Shown: piece after piece, positions 295-46,870 of the stretch | Layout: every line of letters begins with the position of its first letter | Numbering within the stretch: position 1 is the stretch's first letter | Assembly (NCBI RefSeq): GCF_963921235.1 | Contig: NC_086097.1 | Coordinates: 22,384,001 to 22,448,000 of the forward strand | From: Mobula hypostoma | Taxonomy: Eukaryota | DNA length: 64,000 nt | Direction of reading: 5' to 3' | Made by a program: the position numbers and the translations under genes | Notes under the pieces: generated by a model | What the model was told of the DNA's origin: nothing | The model's input: only the letters and a program-made list of their open reading frames with translations | Database searches by the model: none

Positions 295-553
295 TTCAAA
301 GTTCCAAAAAATTATCAAAGTACATCTACGTAACCATATGGTACCTTAAGATTCATTTTATAGAATCACGTTCACAGTGGAACAAAGAAATACAATGGAA
401 TAAACGAGAAACTACACACAATGACTGACAAACAACCAATGTGCAAAAGAAGACTACCTGTGCAAATATAAATAACAATAATAACAATAATGATGAAGTA
501 AATAAATAAAACTGAGAACATAAGATGAAGAGTCCTTGAAGATGAATCCACAG
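295..553 (-). mobile_element. 3' UTR/tail of a Rex1/Babar-like LINE, split from 4404-4800 by the Gypsy insertion
   Basis: Minus strand ends in a TTTGAAC-type tail. The sequence reads on at 4404 once 554-4403 is removed. Confidence 0.55.
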
Positions 554-1502
554 TGTTATGTTTTGTAACTTCAAAACATTAAACTAATTGAAAAGAAAAG
601 ATAGGAGTCTGAAATGTGAGGCTAGCTTTGTTTTGTTTACTGTAGTTCGAGACACGCATGAATGATGATGTAAGGTATTCACTTATTTTTACATATAACC
701 CATAATGAATAACTTAAATGAACAAGAATGCTTAATCAACCAATAAATTTACAATATTACTCAAATATTGAGTACTGAGTGCCTCCCTGGAGGGGGCAGA
801 AGATGGTGGTGCGACAGCAGTGCGCGCGGACACTTGGATGATGATATCTGTTATCTGTCAAGTAGGGGACTGTGCACAATCCTGATTTGATGGAGATAGA
901 TGTGAGAGCACGGAGAAGCATCTGGAAAATTTCTGAAATGCCTGCTTCGCTGCCGCTGCTCCTGTGTGGTAACCGGAATCTCCGGAGCTGAAGGCCTCGA
1001 AATTCTCAGCTTTGCGTGTTTCAGCGGCCGGGGAGAGGTCAAAAGCGCTCAGCAGCGGAAGGCGCTCGGGAGGCTGTATCGGAGAGGCTGGTCGGAAGCT
1101 TGGATTTTTCGGACAGATGGACTCAGTGTCGGCTGTGGTCGACTGCTTTCAAGGCATCGGCAAGTTGTCGGTGCCTGGAGGTTTATGGCAGGGAGTTTCT
1201 CCCTTTTGCTGCCTGCTATCGGGACTCGGGAGTCAATCGACTTGGGACTTTGAGACTTTCTTTTGACTGTGCCTATGATCTGTTCTTCATCAAATTATGG
1301 TATTGTTTTGCACTGCTGCAACTATATGTTATAATTATGTGGTTCTGTCAGTGCTAGTCTTTGGTCTAACCTGTTTTCTGTGATATCATTCCGGAGAAAC
1401 GTTGTATCATTTCTTAATGCATGTATGCATTTCTAAATGACAATAAAAGAGGACTGGGTGTTCTCATAATCTAAATACTACTGAAATATTAAATATACAA
1501 CA
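554..1502 (-). repeat. 3' LTR, interrupted by an insertion at about 770-1472
   Basis: Begins TGTTATG on + at 554 and ends ...ATACAACA at 1502. Shares ATTCACTTATTTT...CAAGAATGCTTAATCAA...TTTACAATATTACTCAAATA with 4295-4403. Confidence 0.75.
770..1472 (+). mobile_element. Non-autonomous non-LTR retroelement, family A (about 0.7 kb)
   Basis: AAGATGG near the 5' end and an AATAAAAGAGGACTG...CATAATCT 3' end. Homologous to 9545-10205 and 27490-27724. Interrupts the LTR. Confidence 0.7.
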
Positions 1503-1513
1503 CTCCTCCCTGC
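1503..1513 (-). other. Polypurine tract (PPT) of the Gypsy element
   Basis: Minus strand reads GCAGGGAGGAG immediately before the TG that starts the 3' LTR. Confidence 0.65.
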
Positions 1514-2245
1514 CTAGCAATAAACTCTAACTGAAGTTAGAATGCATCTCAACTACATACGCAGTATACTATATAATGCAACTACTATACAGATGTCCAC
1601 AGCACAGTAAATTTTTAAGTTGCACTATTCGGGCCTAAAGATTCAGTAGCTGTGAGGCTTTCTTACTCTTGTCGGATAATGTTTTTCCTGACAAGGGCAA
1701 TCACTCTGCTTGGCTGGTGAGACTTGTGGCCGTGAAACAATGTCAGTTTCTGTGGAGGCTGTAGGAGCTGACTCAGAGACTGCAGGAAATGGTTCCGACA
1801 GCTTTGGATACCTTAATTCTGTTTTTCTCACCTTTTCTCTCTGGATTTACTTGCTTCTCTCCCAGTCCTGTCTTCATTCTCTCCCTCTATCCTGCTCTCA
1901 ATCCCTGTCATGGTCTATCTCTATCTCTTCACTCTTTTCCAACTGGTCTCCTCACTTTTTCTCACCTTCCTTTTTCTTTTTCCTCAGATGCGCACCTTGG
2001 TCTTCGGAAGGTGCATTTAGTTCACAGGGGTATTCCCTTATTAAACCTTCTGCTGTTGCCTTTATGATCATATCTCTCCTCTTGGTTTTCTCTTCCACAT
2101 CATCATCTGACAAATCCTCTGTTTTCGTATGTCCATTGACTCCTTTTTTTTTGGCCTTCCATTCATCCAGCTGGGCTTTGGTCTTTTGCACCTACTTTTA
2201 CAAGCAGCTTTTTGTCTCCCACTTGATGTTCATCTAATAGTCTTA

Positions 2246-2826
2246 ATCAAATCAAATCAAATCGAGTTTAATTATCATTCAAACATGTGTGGTTACAGCT
2301 GAAGGAGGCAGCATTTCTCTGAGGCCAAGGTGCAAAAAATACATGAGCATTCAAAACAGTGAGAAAGAAAAGAAATACGTGGTCATGCAAGGAAACACAT
2401 TTTTAGTCCAAGACAACAGATTTTTAGTCCAAGACCGTGAGTGACAAGTCCTGCAAGTCCAGCCTGGAATTCCACTGATCCACCACTGGAGGGTAGTACC
2501 GACGGGAGAGACCACCCCCGACTGAGTATGAAAACTATATGGCTTGAGGCCTAGACGCGTTACAACGGAGGCTACGCTGCAGCCTCACTGCCTGCTCACC
2601 ACCAAACAAGGGAAACAGGCCTTGCTTTTGTAAGAGAAACGTCGAAGACAGTCACTCAGTGTTTCTCTGTATGCTCGCTGATGCAGTAGACCTGCTGTGC
2701 TTGCAGTTATTGGAGTCCAGTATAGTCTTATGATCATAAAAAAACACATTTAACAAAGAAAAGAGCACTTATGTTTGGCCCCTGAGAGGCTGCTGCATCT
2801 GTATGCACCGCCATCTTACCAGAAGT
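2246..2826 (-). mobile_element. Non-autonomous non-LTR retroelement inserted in the RBM25 retrocopy
   Basis: 5' ACTTCTGGTAAGATGGCGG and 3' (GATTT)n tail. It splits RBM25 between STLCA and LRLL. Confidence 0.7.
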
Positions 2827-3007
2827 GAGGCACACAGAGTAGATTCTGATTCTTTTTGTTCACAAAAGCTGAATGCTTGTAACTTTCCTGAAGCTCCTTG
2901 AACTCTCTTCCAGCACAAAACCAAGCCACATTTTGCAAGTACTGCCTGATTAACATATCAGAAGCTTTCTCAGATATGTTGCCTACAAAAACTGTTGTTT
3001 GTTGGAA

Positions 3008-3235
3008 GCAACACACATAAAAATTGCTGGTGAACACAGCAGGCCAGGCAGCATCTCTAGGAAGAGGTACCATCGACGTTTCAGGCCGAGACCTTCGTGA
3101 GTCCTGACCAAGGGTCTCGGCCTGAAACGTCAACTGTACCTCTTCCTAGAGATGCTGCCTGGCCTGCTGCATTCACCAGCAATTTTTATATGTGTTGCCT
3201 GAAATTCCAGCATCTGCAGATTTCCTCGTGTTTGC
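3008..3235. mobile_element. Penelope-like pseudo-LTR remnant, two inverted halves, 14-bp TSD
   Basis: GTTGTTTGTTGGAA at 2994-3007 and 3236-3249. Inverted arms centred near 3100. Same family as 48594-49379 and 55403-56031. Confidence 0.8.
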
Positions 3236-4269
3236 GTTGTTTGTTGGAACTCTGTTTTCATCACTTTCACAATTCCTCTGAGCAACATAGGCTTTCTTGG
3301 TCCAAGAAGCTTTTCAACCAGAGGCACAGGGGTTGGTACCAACACCTGTTTGCTCTCTGTTGGGCAATGGTTCATGGTGGTCAGCATGGACACAGTTGTG
3401 GCATCAACCAGTACCTTTTGTAATTTTCTTTCTGTTGACTCTATTGAAAGGGATGTGGCATGCAAATGGTGGGTGGATCTCCAATCAAGTTGTAGTTGTC
3501 TCTGACAATCATGGTCCCACAATGCTGTCCCTCCTGATTTTATCACATACAAGACCAATGTAGCTTGTTAGATGTTCTATTTCACTGTTACAAATGTCAT
3601 TCCCATAGGAATCATCTTTTCTCCAGAATAATTTCTGAGCTGGATATCTGCAGGCTTCAGTTCAGTATCTTTGAAATGTTATTCAAACACATTTTGTGGA
3701 ATGACTGAAACAGCCCAGCCAGTGTCCAATTCCAATTTGTTGTTCACTTCTAGTGTAAACCATCTTGCTTGTCTGTTATTAGTTTTCACATTGTGAATCT
3801 CAAGGCTATTGCAGTCTTGTGACACTCCCATCACCAGATTTTTTATCAACCTTCATGTATGCAAACTGTATGCCTTTAAATCCAATGCACAGAGCAAAAT
3901 TGGCACTTGCTTCTCATTGGCTATTCCATTTGCTTAAAGTACTCCTCGATAACTCAGTGTACATGATCCAGTTATCCACTGTTCAATGATCTCTCCAATT
4001 TAGCCAGCCATCTCTGCTCTTTTTTTATTTATTAACGTTATTATCCGGTACTCACTGTTTATGGTGGACCCGTGAATTTTTCCATTTTCTACCTTTTTTT
4101 TAACTCAATCGTCTTTGTTTTTGCGAAGAAAATATGCTGCACCGTAGAAAAAAAATGGGCTGTGGTTTTTTTTATTAAACTTGACCATTTCTCTCTGCAT
4201 TTTTTTAAAAACTCAGGCATTTTGCTGTGCATCAAAAGGCAGGTTGCCGTCTGGAGTGCGTTTAAAATA

Positions 4270-4403
4270 CGTGGACACGTATCAGGTGATAGTGCCATTC
4301 ACTTATTTTCACATAAGGAATTATTTAAATGAGCAAGAATGCTTAATCAATCAATATATTTACAATATTACTCAAATACTACTGAAACATTAAATGCACA
4401 ACA
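4270..4403 (-). repeat. 5' LTR, partly deleted; PBS not visible
   Basis: Direct similarity to the 3' LTR; ends ...ATGCACAACA at 4403 on +. Confidence 0.7.
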
Positions 4404-4800
4404 CATTGATTGTGGAAGCAGTTCAGAATTGAATTGAGTGAAGTTATCCTGGCTGGTTGAGGAGCCTGATGGTTGAAGGGTAATAACTGTTCCTGAACCT
4501 GGTGATTTGGGACCTAAGGCTCCTGTACCTCCTTCCCAATGGCAGCTGTGAGAGGAGAGCGTGTACGAGATGGTGGGGTCCTTGACGATAGATGCTGTTT
4601 TCTCCTGGCAATGCTCTTGGTGCATGTGCTCTGTGGTGGAGAGGGCTTTGTTTGTGATAGACTGCGGTTTTGGCGGGCTTTTCCATTCTCGGGCCATAAT
4701 GCCGCCAGCCAGGATACTCTCCACTGAGTATCTATAGATGTTTGTCAATGTTTTAGATGGTGTGCTGAATCCGCACAAACTTCTACGAAACATGCTCTCA
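4404..4800 (-). mobile_element. Rex1/Babar-like LINE, RT C-terminal fragment
   Basis: YRYSVESILAGGI and HALLSQLPLGRRYRSLRSQITRFRNSYYPSTIRLLN are the characteristic Rex1/Babar C-terminus. Confidence 0.75.
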
Positions 4801-5229
4801 TGATTTCAAGGGGCTCTTACACAGAATCCTAATCATTTTCTCAAATGCATTTATACAGCACGAACTGCGCTTTATCTATGCACATAAAATTAGTCAAGCA
4901 TATCATGAATTATTTTTCCGCAGGTTTTGATTGATGACATATTAAACCCACAGCTCTTGACCTCCCATTCCCATTTAGGATAATTAGACTTAACATGCTC
5001 TGAGAGTCAGAGATATATGAGGTCAGAAGCCAGGTATGTAATTTTACAAGGTCAACAGCCAATGAAGTATTGACAAACTATCGTAAGCACACTGGGTCTA
5101 GTTGTTCAATGACATTTCAGAAGACTGAGGGAACACTTTTATAGATAAAATGCTGAGAATTATAAACAGTACAAAATCAGAAAGCTCAAACTAAGTAAAT
5201 CTGTCTTTAAATCTGACATAATTTTAAGA

Positions 5230-5500
5230 TGCTTGGAAGGAAGTATAAGCGGGGTGGAATGTCAGAGGTAGGTTTTCTACACAGAGAGTAGCGGGTGTGT
5301 GGAAAGTACAGCCGGGGCTGGTGGTGGCAGCAGATACATCAGGGATGTTTAAGAGACTTTTGGATAGGCACATGGATGAGAGATAAATTGGAGGGCTGTT
5401 TGGGAGGGAAGGGTTAGACTGACTTTAGAGTACGTTAAAGGGATGACACATCATGGGCTGAAAGGCCTGTACTGTGCTGTACTGCTCTATGTTCAATATT
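5230..5500 (+). mobile_element. CR1 LINE 3' end
   Basis: TTTCTACACAGAGAGT (FFTQRV-like), GGGCTGAAAGGCCTG and a CTATGTT tail. Confidence 0.7.
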
Positions 5501-5522
5501 GTGGACAAATTAAAATGAAATA

Positions 5523-7105
5523 CAGGTGCCCCCGCTTTTCGAATGTTTGCTTTACGAAACCTCACTGTTACGAAAGACCTACATTAGTACCCTGTTTTCA
5601 CTTTCAGAAGGTGTTTCCACTGTTACGGAAAAAAAGCAGCGCGCGATAAAAAATCAGCGCGCGAAAAGTCAGCGTGCAATAAAAGGCAGCGCGTGCCCCG
5701 AGCAGCCGCTCCCCCCCCCCCAGATTCTCGCCGGCATTGCTTAAACACGAGCCTGTGACCAGCCGTTTGCAAGATGAGTTCTATGGTATCGGAAAAGCCT
5801 AAAAGGACTCGTAAGGGTGTTACACTTAGCGTAAAACTAGACATAATTAAGCGTTTCAATCATGGTGAATGAAGTAAGGACAAAGTGAGTTTGGCTTGTG
5901 GAAGCTGACCAACATGATGTTGAAGAGGTTTTGGCATCCCATGATTAAGAACTGACAGATGAAGAGCTGATGCAATTGGAAGAGGAAAGGATAACAATCG
6001 AAACCGAATGACTAATGATAAAGTACGACTTTAATTTTGAAAGGGTATGTCGGTTTAGGGGATATTTGCAGGATGGTTTGAGTCCTTACAAAGAACTGTG
6101 TGATAGAAAAATATGCGAGGCTAGCAGTCAAGCAAGCCTTCCACATCAGCCACAGCAGACGACAAACCTCGACCTTCGACATCGAGGCGGCCAGAGATAG
6201 AAGATGACCTGCCTGCCCTAATGGAAACAGACGATGACGAGATGACACCCCAGTGTCCCACCACCCCAACCCCCAGGCCGCGGACAGATACAGATTCACG
6301 GAGAATGCAGCAGTAGCCGGGAGGCACACAGCACATCTTTAAGAAAAAGGCCGAAATAAGCATACTAATTAATTAGGTGCCGCCGACACGTAATTGTCGG
6401 CCCAGATCAGAGACGACGCAATCAGAAATCGGCACTGATCTGGGCCGACAATTATGTGCCGGGCGGCACCTAATTAATTAGCATGTTTGTTTCGGCTTTT
6501 TTCTTAAAGATGTGCTGTGTACCTCCCGGCTACTGCTGTACCCCTGCATGCTTCGCGCAATGTATCAATCGGCAGCCCAGAGGGTGGGGGCCACTGCACC
6601 ACCCAACCTGTGATGACTCAGCCTAACACACCATCATCAGTGTGCTCGGTGCTGTCTTCCCGACTCCGGTAAGTGATACTACACTGTACATACATTATTT
6701 ATACTTTATATCGGCTGTGTATTTTCATGTGTTACTTGGTATGATTTGGCAGCTTCGTAGCTTACTGGAGAGCGCTTGCGCAGTGTTTTTGCCAACAGCG
6801 CTTGCGTGAGATTTTCTGCCGACGGCGCTTGCGTGAGGTTTTCGCTACGGAGAACAGTGCAGTAATGATTGTGGAAAAGTATTTCTACTTTATATAGGCT
6901 GTGTATTTATCATATCATTCATGTTACTGTTATTTTAGGTTTTATGTGTTATTTGGCATGATTTGGTAGGTTATTTTTTGAGTCTGCGAACGCTCACAAA
7001 ATTTTCCCATATAAATAAACGGTAATTGCTTCTTCGCTTTACGATGTTTCGGCTTACGAACCGTTTCATAGGAACGCTCTACCGTCGGATGGCGGAGGAA
7101 ACCTG
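5523..7105 (+). mobile_element. Tigger/pogo-like DNA transposon, internally deleted
   Basis: TA flanks at 5521-5522 and 7106-7107. Imperfect TIRs CAGGTGCCCCCGC / GCGGAGGAAACCTG. At 5774 MSSMVSEKPKRTRKGVTLSVKLDIIKRFNHGE (CENP-B-type N-terminal HTH) joins directly to the acidic tail DVEEVLASHD*ELTDEELMQLEEE; the DDE core is absent. Confidence 0.8.
6306..6540. repeat. Long inverted repeat (about 105-bp arms, 24-nt spacer) inside the Tigger-like element
   Basis: Left arm 6306-6410 (TGCAGCAGTAGCCGGGAGG...CCCAGATCAG) pairs with 6435-6540 (CTGATCTGGG...CCTCCCGGCTACTGCTGTA). Confidence 0.9.
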
Positions 7106-7249
7106 TAATGAAGCAAAATGACGCTCACAGGTACAGGCAGAAAAGAAAGGGTATTCACAAAAATGAATACTTAAATTTAAGACAAAGATAATCCAGAAGT
7201 TGCTTTGAATCCTGGGAATTAAAGTGTCAACAAATAACAAATGAGCTTT

Positions 7250-7650
7250 TGCACTCATTGGAGTTGAGAAGAATGAAGGAGCTTCTCTTTGAAACCCACT
7301 GCATATTGAAAGGCCTGGAAAGAGTGGATATGGAGAGAATGTTTCCTACAGTGGAGGAGTCTAGGACCAGGGGGCACAATCTCAGACTAGAAGGATGTTC
7401 CTTTAGAACAGAGATGAGGGGGAATTTCTTTAGCCAGAGGGTGGTAAATCTGTGGAATTCATTAGTAGAGATGGCCGTGGAAGCCAAGTCATTGGGTATA
7501 TTTAAAGCGGAGTTTGATAGGTTCTTGATTTGTAAGGTCATCGAAGGTCATGGGAAGAATGCAGGAGAGTGGGGTTGAGAAGGATAAAAATTGGGTGTAA
7601 TTCAATGGGCTGAATGGCCTAATTCTTCTCCTATGTATAATGGTCTTATG
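7250..7650 (+). mobile_element. CR1 LINE 3' end
   Basis: SLELRR...ILKGLERVD...TRGHNLRL...NFFSQRVVNLWNSL followed by 3' UTR. Confidence 0.85.
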
Positions 7651-11576: not shown

Positions 11577-14500
11577 GTGACCAAGGGCTGGACTGGAACC
11601 AATGTCCGAGGGGGAGCGTTTGCTCCTGTTGTTCAGGAGGATTTAAACTAATGTGGCAGGGGGATGGGAACAAGTGCAGAGAGACAGAGGGGTGTAAAAT
11701 GAGGGTAGAAGCAAAAAGTAGTAAGGTGAAAAGTAAAAGTGGCAGGCCGGTAAATCCAGGGCAAAAATCAAAAAGGGCCACTTTTCAACATAATTGTATA
11801 AGGGCTAAGAGAGTTGTAAAAGCGAGCCTGAAGGCTTTGTGTGCCAATGCAAAGAGCATTTGTAACAAGGTGGATGAAATGAATGTGCAGAAAGTTATTA
11901 ATGAATATGATATAGTTGAGATCACAGAGACATGGCTCCAGGGTGACCAAGGATGGGAGCTCAACATTCAGGGATATTCAATATTCAGGAGGGATGGACA
12001 TGAAAGAAAAGGAGGTGGGGTGGCATTGCTGGTTAGAGAGGAGATTAACACAATGGAAAGGAAGGACATTAGCCGGGAGGATGTGGAATCGATATGGGTA
12101 GAACTGCATAACACTAAGGGGCAGAAAACGCTGGTGTGAGTTGTGTACAGGCCACCTAACAGTAGTAGTGAGGTTGGGGATGGCATTAAACAGGAAATTA
12201 GAAATGCGTGCAATAAAGGAACAGCAGTTATAATGGGTGACTTCAATCTACATATAGATTGGGTGAACCAAATTGGTAAGGGTGCAGAGGAAGAGGATTT
12301 CTTGGAATGTGTGCGGGATAGTTTTCTGAACCAACATGTCGAGGAACCAACTGGAGAGCAGGCCATTGTAGACTGGGTATTGAGCAATGAGGAAGGGTTA
12401 GTTAGCAACCTTGTCGTAAGAGTGACCATAATATGGTGGAATTCTTCATAAAGATGAAGAGTGATATAGTTAATTTAGTAACAAAGGTTCTGAACTTAAA
12501 GAAGGGTAACTTTGAAGGTATGAGACATGAATTAGCTAAGATAGACTGGCAAATGATATTTAAAGGGTTGACGGTGGATATGCAATGACAAGCATTTAAA
12601 GATCGCATGGATGAACTACAACAATTGTTCATCCCAGTTTCTCAAAAGAATAAACCAGGGAAGGTAGTGCACCCGTGGCTGACAAGGGAAATTAGGGATA
12701 GTATCAATTCCAAAGAAGAAGCATACAAATTAGCCAGAAAAAGTAGCACACCTGAGGACTGGGAGAAATTCAGAGTTCAGCAGAGGAGGACAAAGGGCTT
12801 AATTAGAAAAGGGAAAAAAGATTATGTGAGAAAGCTGGCAGGGAACATAACAACTGACTATAAAAGCTTTTATAGATATGTGAAAAGAAAAAGATTGGTT
12901 AGGACAAATATAGGTCCCTTACAGTCAGAACAGGTGAATTGATCTTGGGGAACAAGGACATGGCAGACCAATTGAATAACTACTTTGGTTCTGCCTTCAC
13001 TAAGGAGGACATAAATAATCTTCCAGAAATAGTAGGGGACCAAGGATCTAGTGAGATGGAGGAACTGAGGGAATTACATGTTAGTAGGGAAGTGGTGTTA
13101 GGTAAATTGAAGGGATTAAAGGCAGATAGATCCCCAGGGCCAGATGGTCTGCATCCCAGAGTGCTTAAGGAAGTAGCCCAAGAAATCGTGGATGCATTAG
13201 TGATAATTTTTCAAAACTCTTTAGATTCTGGACTAGTTCCTGAGGATTGGAGGGTGGCTAATGTAACCCCACTTTTTAAAAAAGGAGGGAGAGAGAAACC
13301 GGGGAATTACAGACTGGTTAGCCTAATATCGGTGGTGGGGAAAATGCTAGAGTCAGTTATCAAAGATGTGATAACAGCACACTTGGAAAGCAGTGAAATC
13401 ATCGGACAACGTCAGCAGGGATTTGTGAAAGGAAAATCATGTCTGACTCATGTCATAGAATTTTTTGAGGATGTAACTAGTAGAGTGGATAGGGGAGAAC
13501 CAGTGGATGTGATATATTTGGATTTTCAAAAGACTTTTGACAAGGTCCCACACAGGAGATTAGTGTGCAAACTTAAAGCACACGGTATTGGGGGTAAGGT
13601 ATTGATGCGGATAGAGAATTGGTTGGCAGACAGGAAGCAAAGAGTGGGAATAAACGGGACCTTTTCAGAATGGCAGGCGGTGACTAGTGGGGTACCGCAA
13701 GGCTCAGTGCTGGGACCCCAGTTGTTCACAATATATATTAATAACTTAGACGAGGGAATTAAATGCAGCATCTCCAAGTTTGCAGATGACACGAAGCTGG
13801 GCGGCAGTGTTAGCTGTGAGGAGGATGCTAAGAGGATGCAGCGTGACTTGGATAGGTTGGGTGAGTGGGCAAATTCATGACGGATGCAATTTAATGTGGA
13901 TAAATGTGAGGTTATCAACTTTGGTGGCAAGAACAGGAAAACAGATTATTATCTGAATGGTGGCCAATTAGGAAAAGGGGAGGTGCAACGAGACCTGGGT
14001 GTAATTGTACAGCAGTCACTGAAAGTGGGCATGCAGGTACAGCAGGTGGTGAAAAAGGCGAATGGTATGCTGATATTCCTAGCAAGAGGATTCGAGTACA
14101 GGAGCAGGGAGGTACTACTGCAGTTGTACAAGGCCTTGGTGAGACCACACCTGGAGTATTGTGTGCAGTTTTGGTCCCCTAATCTGAGGAAAGGCATTCT
14201 TGCCATAGAGGGAGTACAAAGAAGGTTCACCAGATTGATTCCTGGGATGGCAAGACTTCCATATGATGAAAGACTGGATCGACTAGGCTTATACTCTCTG
14301 GAATTTAGAAGATTGAGGGGAGATCTTATTGAAACGTATAAAATCCTAAAGGGATTGGACAGGCTAGATGTAGGAAGATTGTTCCCGGCGTTGAGGAAGT
14401 CCAGAATGAGGGGTCACAGTTTGAGGATAAAGGGGAAGCCTTTTAGGACCGAGATTAGGAAAAACTTCTTCACACAGAGAGTGGTGAATCTGTGGCATCT

Positions 14501-14711
14501 CTGCCACAGGAAACAGTTGAGGCCAGTTCATTGGCTATATTTAAGAGGAAGTTAGATATGGCCCTTGCGGCTTAAGGGATCACGCGGTATGGAGGGAAGG
14601 CAGGTACAGGGTTCTGAGATGGATGATTAGCCGTGATCATACTGAATGGCGGTGCAGGCTCGAAGGGCCAAATGGCCTAATCCTGCACCTATTTTCAATG
14701 TTTCTATGTTC
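11577..14711 (+). mobile_element. CR1 LINE, 5'-truncated, near-complete ORF2 (APE + RT) with stops and frameshifts
   Basis: APE motifs NAKSICNK, ITETWL, YRPP, MGDFN. RT motifs [36 protein letters not shown]-terminal LVRPHLEY, FFTQRVVNLW and a TTCTATGT tail. ORF2 is broken across several frames. Confidence 0.95.
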
Positions 14712-44022: not shown

Positions 44023-46870
44023 AAACACAAAATACTCTGCAGATGCTGGGGTCAAAGCAACACTAACAACACACTGGAGGAAATCAACAGGTCGGGCAGC
44101 ATCCGTGGAAACGATCAGTCAACGTTTCGGGCCGGAACCCTTCATCAGGACTGAAGAGGGAAGGGGCAGAGGCCCTATAAAGAAGGTGGGGGGAGGGTGG
44201 GAAGGAGAAGGCTGGTAGTTTCCAGGTGAAAAACCCTTAGGGGGAGAGATAAAGGGGTGGGGGAGGGGAAGCAAGGAGGTGATAGGCAGGAAAGGTGAAG
44301 AAGGAATAGGGGAAAGCACAATGGGTAGTAGAAGGAGGCGGAACCATGAGGGAGATGATAGGCATTTGGGGGAGGGGGCAGAGTGAAATAGGGATAGGGG
44401 AAGGGAGGGGGAGTGAATTACCGGAAGTTGGAGAATTCTATGTTCATACCAAGGGGCTGGAGACTACCTAGACGCTTATATGAGGTATTGCTCCTCCAAC
44501 CTGAGTTTAGCCTCATCATGGCAGTAGAGGAGGCCATGTATGGACATATCCAAATGGGAATGTGAAGCAGAGTTGAAGTGGGTGGCAACTGGGAGATCCT
44601 GTCTGTTGTGGCGGACGGAGTGGAGGTGCTCAACGAAGCGGTCCCCAAATCTGCGTCGGGTTTCACCGATGTAGAGGAGGCCGCACCGGGAGCACCGGAT
44701 GCAATAGATGACCCCAACAGACTCACAAGTGAAGTGTTGCCTCACCTGGAAGGACTGTTTGGGGCCCTGAATGATGGCAAGAGAGGAGGTGTAGGGACAG
44801 GTGTAGCACTTACGCTTACAGGGATAAGTGTCGGGTGGGAGATCCATGGGGAGGGACATGTGGATCAGGGAGTCGCGGAGGGACCGATTTCTGCGGAAAG
44901 CAGAGAGGGGTGGAGAGGGAAGGACGTGCTTAGTGGTGGGGTCCTGTTGGAGGTGGCGGAAGTTGCGGAGGATAATGTGCTGGATTCGGAGGCTGGTGGG
45001 GTGGCAGGTGAGGGCAAAGAGAACTCTGTACCTGTTTGGTGGTGGGAGGGTGGGGTGAGGGCCGAAGTGCGGGAAATGGAGGAAATGCGGGTGAGGGCAT
45101 CATTGATGACGGCAGAAGGGAAACCACGATTCTTAAGAAAGAGGACATTTGAGATGTCCTGGAACGGAAAGCCTCATCCTGGGAGCAGATGCGACGGAGA
45201 CGGAGGAACTGGGAATAGGGAATGGCATTTTTGCATGTGGCAGGGTGGGAAGAGGTATAGTTGAGGTAGTTATGAGAGTCAGTTGGATTGTAGAAGATGT
45301 CAGTGGACAGTCTGTCTCCAGAGATGGAGACCGAGACATTGAGAAAGGGGAGAGAAGTGTCCGTATACACCAAGTGAATTTGAGGGCTGAGTGGAAGTTT
45401 GAAGTAAAGTCGATGAAATTGACGAGGTCAGCATGGGTTCAGGAAGCAGCACCAATGTAGTCGTCAATGTAGCGAAGGAAAAGTTGGGGAGCAGTACCAA
45501 AATAGGTTTGGAGCACAGACTGTTCCACATAACCAACGAAGAGGCAGGCATAGCTGGGGCCCATGCGAGTGCCCATAGCTACACCCTTGGTCTGAAGAAA
45601 GTGGAAAGAGCCAAAAGAGAAGTTATTAAATGTGAGTACCAGTTCCGCCAACTGGAGGAGAGTAGTGGTGGTGGGGAACTGGTGAGGTCTATCGTCCAGA
45701 AAGTAGCGGAGGGCTTTGAGGCCTTCTTGATGTGGAATGGAGGTGTAAAGGATTGGACATCCATTGTGAAAATGAAGCGGTCGGGACTGGGGAACTGGAA
45801 GTTATTGAAGAGGTGGAGGGCATGGGATGTATCCCGGATGTAGGTGGGGAGGGACTGAACTATGGGTGACAAAATGGAGTCCAGGTAGGCAGATACAAGT
45901 TCGGTGGGACAGGAGCAGGCAGAAACTATGGGTCTACTGGGACAGTCAGGCTTGTGGATCTTGGGGAGGAGGTAAAACCAAGCGGTACGGGGTGTGGGAA
46001 TTATGAGTTTAGCGGAGGATGGAAGGTCTCCAGAGTTGATAAGGGCAGTGATGGTACGGGAGACAATGGTTTGATGTTTTCTGATGGGGTCCTGTTCCAG
46101 GGGTAAGTAAGAGGAGGTGTCAGAGAGCTGCCGTTTGGCCTCAGTGAGGTAGAGGTTCGTCCGCCAGAATACTACGGCACCACCTTTGTCTACGGGTTTG
46201 ATGGTGAGGTTGGGATTAGTGTGTAGAGAGTGGAGGGCAGTGCGTTCAGAGGGAGTGAGGTTGGAACATGGGAGAGGAGTGGTGAAGTTGAGACGGTTGA
46301 TGTCTCGGCGACAGTTGGAGATGAAACAATCGAGTGCAGGTAGAAGGCCCAGGTGGGGTGTCCAGGAGGAGGAGGGGGGTTGAAGACGGGAGAAGGGGTC
46401 ATCAGTAGGGGGAGGGGAACCCTTGCCAAAGAAGTAGGCTTGGAGACATAGGCGACGGAAGAAGAGTTCAGCGTCATGGCGGGCACGGAACTCACTGAGT
46501 TGTGGACGGAGGGGGACAAACGTGAGGCCCTTGCTAAGGACAGAACATTATGCCTCAGGGAAGGGGATGGTGAAGACACTGCAAGGGTTGGGGCTAGGGT
46601 CAGAGGAGGGTAAAGAGTGGGAGGTCTCAGGATGGAGAGGGGGGCTGGGATATTCGGGGAGAGCGAGGTTAGGGGTGGATGAGGGATCAGAGGAATGGAG
46701 GGGCAATGAGGGTAGAGGGAAGGTTGGGAATCGTGGGGAGGAAAGAGGGTGGTGGGGGAATAAGACGGGCGGTAGGACCCAGCGGCAGTAAGAGCGGTCC
46801 CGGTCTGGAGAGGGTCAAGACTTCGGTCCGAGCTCGATCTGGAGCTGGGTTGATATTGTTCTGGAGCTAG
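44023..46870 (-). mobile_element. Penelope-like element, about 2.85 kb: RT + GIY-YIG + pseudo-LTR, frameshifted
   Basis: YIRDTSH, FTMDVQS, QTKGVAMGTRMGPSYACLFVG, LRYIDD, AIPYSQFLRLRRICS, VIYCIRCSRCGLLYIGET, MNIEFSNFR*. Confidence 0.93.
44115..44154 (-). ncRNA. Minimal type I hammerhead ribozyme motif, best-preserved copy
   Basis: UCAGUC-CUGAUGA-AGGGUUCCGGCCC-GAAAC-GUU-GACUGA: 6-bp stem I, intact core, palindromic AACGUU in place of stem III. Confidence 0.75.

Follow-up and report, generated by a model that had tools for sequence, protein, structure and literature searches.

How does part of the message for a splicing regulator come to lie between the long terminal repeats (LTRs) of a retrotransposon, at the very place where the polymerase genes should be? 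The question is raised by positions 554 to 4,403 of a 64,000-nucleotide stretch of the Mobula hypostoma genome (NCBI RefSeq assembly GCF_963921235.1, contig NC_086097.1, positions 22,384,001 to 22,448,000, hereafter the window), in which an earlier note had described a Gypsy LTR retrotransposon carrying a captured segment of RBM25 mRNA. We conclude with high confidence that the element belongs to a non-autonomous Gypsy family in which spliced RBM25 mRNA replaced the reverse transcriptase (RT), RNase H and integrase core by template switching, and that the hybrid was then transposed. The microhomologies that a double template switch predicts are present at both junctions (7 and 10 nt).

RBM25 in place of the polymerase genes

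On the minus strand the window element reads from an LTR start at 4403 (TGTTG) through leader and gag start, protease, RBM25, integrase tail and purine tract to a split 3' LTR. All parts were located in the order first proposed, from 5' LTR, gag start and protease DTG to purine tract and 3' LTR. Listed along the minus strand, with the basis of each assignment, the features are as follows.

4404..4408, minus strand: 5' copy of the 5-bp target-site duplication, CAATG (5-mer present once in uninterrupted copies of the flanking repeat)
4270..4403, minus strand: 5' LTR remnant, its 3' half and the primer-binding site deleted here (alignable to the 3' LTR)
3861..4267, minus strand: leader and start of gag (at 3860/3851 this copy alone has lost ~600 bp of gag)
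3404..3850, minus strand: end of gag, aspartic protease with DTG at 3726-3718, linker between protease and RT (~80% identity to RBM25-free parent copies)
3397..3403, minus strand: 5' switch point, 7-nt microhomology TGCCACA of host exon 3 and parent element (in-frame fusion)
3346..3403, minus strand: RBM25 exon 3 end (10 nt) and 48-nt cassette exon (10/10 and 43/48 identity to host exons)
3236..3345, minus strand: RBM25 exon 4, first part, VLVPT... (alignment to host exons)
3008..3235, no strand: later insert whose inverted arms measure 86 nt, with a 14-bp duplication (sister copies have no insert here)
2830..3007, minus strand: RBM25 exon 4 end, exon 5 and exon 6 start, RRM (89% to spliced host sequence over two junctions)
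2247..2829, no strand: later insert within exon 6 (sister copies have no insert here)
1813..2246, minus strand: RBM25 exon 6 end, exon 7, exon 9 remnants and exon 10 start (exon 8 and most of exon 9 deleted)
1813..1822, minus strand: 3' switch zone, GGAGAAGAAA microhomology, degraded in the window copy (10 nt, host exon 10 versus intact parents)
1515..1812, minus strand: integrase C-terminal tail with HYPTRVRKP, out of frame with RBM25 (matches parent copies 3' of the integrase core)
1503..1514, minus strand: polypurine tract (directly 5' of the 3' LTR)
554..1502, minus strand: 3' LTR in two parts, 1502-1473 and 769-554, ending AACA (split by a later ~700-bp insert, ~1472-770)
549..553, minus strand: 3' copy of the target-site duplication, CTGTG (comparison with the uninterrupted flanking repeat)

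The two LTRs belong to one family, being alignable to each other with a Kimura two-parameter (K2P) distance of 0.128 over 129 nt. Of the 5' LTR that the note had called, the part from 4403 is present and the rest is lost; in sister copies the LTR measures ~250 bp and a TGGCGACGAGG-like primer site comes next, a putative match to tRNA-Ser. The gag start is likewise in place, but the ~600 bp of gag that sister and parent copies carry between the blocks joined at 3860/3851 are missing. From DTG to VLVPT the window copy forms one frame with three in-frame stops. It aligns to 0 of the 84 nt of exon 8 and to 75 of the 335 nt of exon 9, both of which are retained in copies L034, L038 and L044. The three inserts taken to be later arrivals are real, and the 14-bp duplication of the one in exon 4 lies at 3249-3236 and 3007-2994. 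The repeat that forms this insert recurs many times in other loci retrieved. As had been proposed, the whole unit interrupts one repeat, which the note labelled Rex1-like: the window flanks are its two halves, unbroken in six uninterrupted copies, with CAATG and CTGTG at the two sides.

The donor gene was approached from both protein and genome. Searching proteins with the window's RBM25 gave scores for 29 of 66 candidates, most of the named ones being RBM25 or RRM proteins, and the best match (78%) was an RBM25-like protein of Heptranchias perlo. The PWI exons of host RBM25 match one place only, on the minus strand of G000:C1 near 99.79-99.80 Mb (three matches among eight candidates); a PWI family search recovered other PWI genes and not RBM25. 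We cut host exons from 160 kb around RBM25, using a numbering of our own counted against the gar protein, and delimited nine, all with AG/GT ends. Ten nt of exon 3 open the cargo, a 48-nt cassette exon comes next, and the captured sequence breaks off after ~28 nt of exon 10, so that 29 kb of gene is reduced to 1.07 kb. The longest copies, L034, L038 and L044, align over the whole span, from mRNA position 41 to ~1112. The blocks lie in the same orientation as the element and cross eight host exon junctions without introns, as the note had it, whereas its start of RBM25 at VLVPT has to be moved upstream to the end of exon 3 and the cassette exon.

The cassette exon is in frame between exons 3 and 4 (G000:C1:99832586-99832633, L053). 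The peptide it encodes agrees at 14/14 positions with the start of the Heptranchias protein (P0001) and is absent from the gar, paddlefish and P0005 proteins. The RBM25-carrying family preserves an old spliced RBM25 isoform that includes this exon.

To what did the captured segment attach? Searching the genome with the window's protease DNA retrieved 29 other loci, 5 with RBM25 and 24 without it. The RBM25-free copies share LTR, gag, protease and tail with the chimera at about 65-90%, and parent copies carry fragments of RVT_1 (E 3e-12), RT_RNaseH_2 (7e-18) and rve (1e-8) in Pfam (L132, L204, L203). On L203 the domain order is protease-RT-RNase H-integrase, of Ty3/Gypsy type. Parent copy L135 has 2,791 nt between the two switch sites, all absent from the window element, and RT, RNase H and the integrase core are missing exactly where RBM25 sits. 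No element frame longer than 210 codons occurs in the parent copies examined. No protein was retrieved by searching with the window's protease tail, Pfam returned nothing useful for seven pieces of the window's own fragments, and none of the top 30 integrase-core loci of the genome is related to the RBM25-carrying family at the DNA level, so that no young autonomous partner emerged from them.

At the 5' side, host and parent share TGCCACA (13/17 over a wider stretch), and the chimera equals the parent upstream and the host downstream; the junction lies at 3403-3397, not near 3390 as first placed. The 3' counterpart is GGAGAAGAAA, an exact 10-nt match between host exon 10 and intact parents. 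Direct joins were seen at every locus where an anchor was found, namely 29 of 32 further chimeric loci at the 5' side and 27 of 31 at the 3' side, plus the window. Neither a poly(A) nor a separate duplication accompanies the RBM25 piece, and the Gypsy sequences to its left and right are not continuous with each other. None of the three results set beforehand as speaking against the note's reading occurred, these being a cargo with target-site duplication and poly(A) inside contiguous Gypsy sequence, introns, or mismatched LTRs. Every feature of an LTR-mediated retrocopy that could be tested is present: spliced cargo, discontinuous flanks, microsimilarity, absence of L1 hallmarks and LTRs of one family. 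As a side observation, L041 holds two RBM25 cargo segments in tandem (mRNA positions 41-514 and 41-657).

Spread, age and decay of the family

The note had suggested a gene-carrying non-autonomous family should other copies exist, and the chimeric junction does recur, with separate target-site duplications. A 20-mer over the chimeric 5' junction occurs exactly 208 times in the genome of 3.48 Gb and 200 contigs, a parent-type 20-mer 509 times, and an exon-4 20-mer 347 times, host gene included; controls gave 0 for all. Copy number was estimated from overlaps between printed lists, counted by eye, and unequal copy ages push such estimates down. An overlap of 14/47 gives 1,162 copies, a value biased low since the second 20-mer was picked as the best-kept word of 40 loci, which biases this overlap upward; its unbiased part, 4/25, gives 2,162 (interval 959-7,625). 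Using loci found otherwise, an overlap of 7/45 gives 1,337 (706-3,204). First-look candidate counts of 1,669 to 3,159 are of similar size, but unscored. The chimera sits at hundreds of counted sites, and likely at one to a few thousand in the genome.

Among the junction matches listed, copies are dispersed over all seven contigs shown. We sampled the first 40 of 100 listed junction matches; all 40 loci carry RBM25, and 38 do so from mRNA position 41. Both element ends were found in 17 copies, and in 7 of these the 5-bp duplications agree at 4/5 or 5/5 positions (chance 0.016 each, p=4e-9). Copies with target duplications of their own indicate that the hybrid transposed. Chimera copies keep LTR ends, primer site and purine tract and lack RT and integrase, the window copy having lost its primer site later. 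Two LTR matches with no internal sequence were seen in the 160-kb region around host RBM25 (G000:C1:99876649-99876890 and 99906402-99906635, L063), which suggests that full copies are greatly outnumbered by solo LTRs.

LTR pairs of the chimera differ by a mean K2P of 0.211 (range 0.15-0.27, n=15) and those of the parent by 0.19-0.26 (n=10), with 0.257 between elements. This similarity indicates that both forms spread in the same old wave. The resulting ~0.105 changes per site per lineage correspond to ~60 million years if the white shark rate is applied (1.93e-8 per 11-year generation, PMC12358869) and to far more at that given for the epaulette shark (7e-10 per generation, PMC10587355), and the date is accordingly loose. 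A protein predicted by NCBI for Hypanus sabinus (P0102) begins with the same join of Gypsy linker, cassette exon and exon 4. Its best match in the Mobula hypostoma genome reaches 70% (among 150 scored of 3,159 candidates), which, judged by sequence, makes P0102 a likely product of a second species. In this gene model the junction peptide (first ~83 aa) is joined to GTF2IRD2-like sequence, and the model is likely a nested transposon read as one gene.

By the distance from exon 7 to the tail, copies group into long, middle and short classes; the short class makes up 32 of 60, with 31 or 37 nt as its commonest values. Two changes in the cassette exon nest with the derived exon-7 end, and 11 of 40 copies carry all three marks. 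The nested length classes and marks point to several source copies in series.

We also compared the cargo with the host gene. Where at least 60% of copies differ from the host, 19 columns are synonymous and 3 non-synonymous; two of the latter lie at a deletion edge, and at the third the copies agree with Heptranchias. This pattern fits host drift since capture from a founder near the mRNA of its day. Private changes are neutral, with a synonymous share of 0.253 against 0.254 expected (1,641 changes). The cargo of 40 copies contains 51 stops, and its indels comprise 176 frameshifting and 23 in-frame events. A first dN/dS (non-synonymous to synonymous rate ratio) of 0.78 proved to be an effect of the mutation spectrum, and the corrected test was neutral. 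Purifying selection on the cargo reading frame, the mark of a functional retrogene, was thus not found, and any suggestion that the captured splicing-regulator RRM had a function is unsupported, the cargo decaying neutrally.

Origin of the hybrid and competing explanations

The course of events that we favour, likely with one origin, is that reverse transcriptase switched to an RBM25 mRNA packaged along with the element and then switched back, each time at a short sequence common to both templates. During minus-strand synthesis the enzyme would have left the element in the integrase tail at GGAGAAGAAA, copied RBM25 from exon 10 back to exon 3, and returned to the element at TGCCACA in the protease-RT linker. 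The founder's product would have been Gag-protease-RBM25 (RRM, RE-rich), lacking a PWI domain and ending in a short off-frame tail. Enzymes of the parent family would then likely have spread the hybrid to between one and a few thousand sites, and later source copies lost parts of the purine-rich exons 7-10, founding the shorter subfamilies. Co-packaging, both jumps during reverse transcription and mobilisation in trans are the steps we infer; for the last, a partner family of the same age as the chimera exists, all its copies seen being decayed.

Several observations weigh against this account. Ten of the 17 copies with both ends agree at only 3/5 positions or fewer at the target site, a mismatch that decay and imprecisely placed ends would partly explain. 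Neither form yielded an intact or young copy, and mobilisation in trans was therefore not observed. DNA-level repair from RBM25 cDNA would leave identical junctions. The microhomologies do favour the account, a 7-nt match arising in 1,305 and a 10-nt match in 41 of 2,000,000 random draws of switch pairs, but this null treats all positions alike when both 3'-switch regions are purine-rich. Finally, the protease region, with 3 diagnostic columns, hardly tells chimera and parent apart, so that the single origin rests on the shared junctions and not on a tree.

Could the cargo have been useful to the element? On this proposal, which is compatible with template switching, an in-frame Gag-protease-RBM25(RRM) product or a purine-rich RNA helped the element to be packaged, exported or spared from silencing. 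In 15 distinct loci a stop-free stretch crosses the 5' join in frame with gag-protease, although an in-frame joint has one chance in three and the pointer is a weak one. Gag knuckle and protease share one frame in 4 loci. Equally weak is the full-length frame kept across the deletion in 22 of 32 short-form copies, as GAA-type repeats favour in-frame deletions. Chimeras make up 208 of 717 exact junction matches, yet cargo-free deleted forms spread too. One copy, at L185:2622-3473 (G000:C91), has a 284-codon open frame across the junction and the RRM (Pfam RRM_1). Three runs presumed to be RNA cover the flanks of L185 as evenly as the element, at a contig depth of 2-15, a pattern that says nothing either way about expression. 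The 73-aa junction peptide of L187 retrieved nothing with HMMER (0 hits). Both cassette-exon changes that mark subfamilies are non-synonymous, and change after insertion is neutral even in four copies picked for open RRM frames (p 0.19-0.87), L185 also showing no synonymous excess. Defective oncogene-transducing retroviruses carry host coding sequence fused in frame to gag, have lost replicative genes and need a helper. Unlike in these, no env gene was seen in the parent copies examined, and there is no evidence for a selected cargo. We consider a useful cargo doubtful.

Capture at the DNA level would start from a break in a Gypsy element, repaired by microhomology from RBM25 cDNA or an older processed copy, after which the locus transposed non-autonomously. 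This predicts the same intron-free cargo, microhomologies and later spread, but the behaviour of the 3' site argues against it. Nine parent-type loci (L127, L128, L130, L133, L142, L131, L144, L195 and L196) form a cargo-free subfamily with a 726-nt integrase deletion that ends at the chimera's 3' switch site. The start of the tail is visible in 15 of 32 parent-type loci, of which 5 are intact to the site, 9 resume there after this deletion and 1 is different; 4 of the 9 have a second deletion, upstream. Reuse of the site by cargo-free derivatives (9/15) fits a switching hot spot for RT as in Tan et al. Moreover, 19 synonymous against 3 non-synonymous host differences give no sign of a long pseudogene stage before capture. 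DNA-level capture is accordingly improbable.

A retrocopy of RBM25 made by a long interspersed nuclear element (LINE) and inserted into a Gypsy copy that spread later is a much poorer candidate still. LINEs are abundant in the genome, and a Vertebrate Genomes Project (VGP) study ties retrocopy counts to non-LTR content. The hallmarks of a LINE processed pseudogene are nonetheless absent: there is no poly(A) and no duplication around the cargo, both of its ends fall inside coding sequence, with the 3' end in exon 10 and PWI exons at the host locus only, and microhomology occurs at both ends. The missing 2.8 kb of pol contradicts such an origin. That the many copies reflect segmental duplication or assembly error is scarcely credible, as nothing was found in its favour, distinct target-site duplications contradict it, flanks differ, copies are ~20% apart, and junction matches lie on all the contigs shown with many more added by other searches.

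Comparison with known systems and further observations

The capture mechanism itself is already published. The LTR-mediated retrocopies of Tan et al. 2016 (Genome Res 26:1663, PMC5131818) are, as described there, partial mRNAs truncated at both ends that replace internal open reading frames (ORFs) of an LTR element and lack poly(A) and a duplication of their own. The same account gives a median switch-point microsimilarity of 6 bp, against 7 and 10 nt here, a reused switch-back site for BLASTOPIA, and further rounds of transposition as a non-autonomous element. It differs in dealing with young loci, nine Drosophila retrocopies at 18 insertion sites, two of them with more than one site, whereas the RBM25-carrying family is old, has an estimated 1,200-2,200 copies and nested subfamilies, and occurs in a second species as well. 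Maize Bs1 and plant gene-capturing LTR elements (PMC13317346) likewise combine an LTR retroelement with host gene segments; Bs1 is described as having three donors and a transcribed and translated chimeric gene, compared with one vertebrate donor and no sign of selection here. In Plutella xylostella, Pxyfem (PMC9674220) is a multi-copy partial host cDNA joined to an LTR-element gag at a microsimilar switch point. Its 11 copies are reported as clustered and W-linked, with antisense transcription silencing the parent gene, in contrast to the dispersed, sense-oriented copies found here. Mag-lineage Ty3/Gypsy elements are reported to have short LTRs, mostly 5-bp duplications, often one ORF, the order protease-RT-RNase H-integrase and a tRNA-Ser or -Leu primer site (PMC3286476). 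The RBM25-carrying family shows 5-bp duplications and ~250-bp LTRs, its RT led to generic RT clusters only, and the Mag lineage may be named as a candidate affiliation.

Our literature search found no report of an RBM25-carrying Gypsy family or of its scale, and the main texts of two VGP preprints do not contain 'RBM25'; Repbase, Dfam or preprint supplements may list the family. The scale is unusual: published animal captures, in the sources available, reach a few to about a dozen copies, while here one capture gave rise to roughly a thousand or more. Donor gene, parent element and both switch points are all recoverable, and three questions become testable: whether carrying cargo changes the success of an LTR element, on a comparison of chimeras with cargo-free deletion derivatives from one family; whether capture depends on hot spots for switching back; and how the host copes with near-copies, in such numbers, of a splicing factor that is essential.

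Retrocopy surveys of cartilaginous fishes may be distorted by such families. The top donors in these fishes, according to a VGP retrocopy preprint, are MIPOL1, SUDS3, SDF2L1, SLU7 and ZNF276. Repeat-masked families such as the RBM25-carrying one are removed by a filter, while others, SUDS3 for example, appear among the top 'retrocopied genes'. The present genome holds 119 dispersed Sds3-family (SUDS3) matches, with stops (20 loci examined, L211-L230). An origin of these copies from the same Gypsy parent was rejected, as none of the 20 loci has the LTR, protease or tail of the RBM25-carrying family inside 1.5 kb; SUDS3 is likely a second, separate cargo family. We give little credence to a bolder view, that a vertebrate retrotransposon spread because of an in-frame Gag-protease-RBM25(RRM) fusion, as oncogene-bearing retroviruses do, and that, more widely, the leading retrocopies listed for cartilaginous fishes were made by cargo-carrying Gypsy families and not by LINEs, while small RNAs from a thousand RBM25-like copies could act back on the host gene.

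Elsewhere in the window, two left-flank ORFs gave no Pfam hit. Two decayed reverse-transcriptase-like ORFs lie at 12903-14552 (plus strand) and 45582-46547 (minus strand), and by eye the first resembles CR1-type and the second Penelope-type sequence. At 6308-6538 there is a nested inverted repeat with 77-nt and 34-nt arms that resembles a miniature inverted-repeat transposable element.

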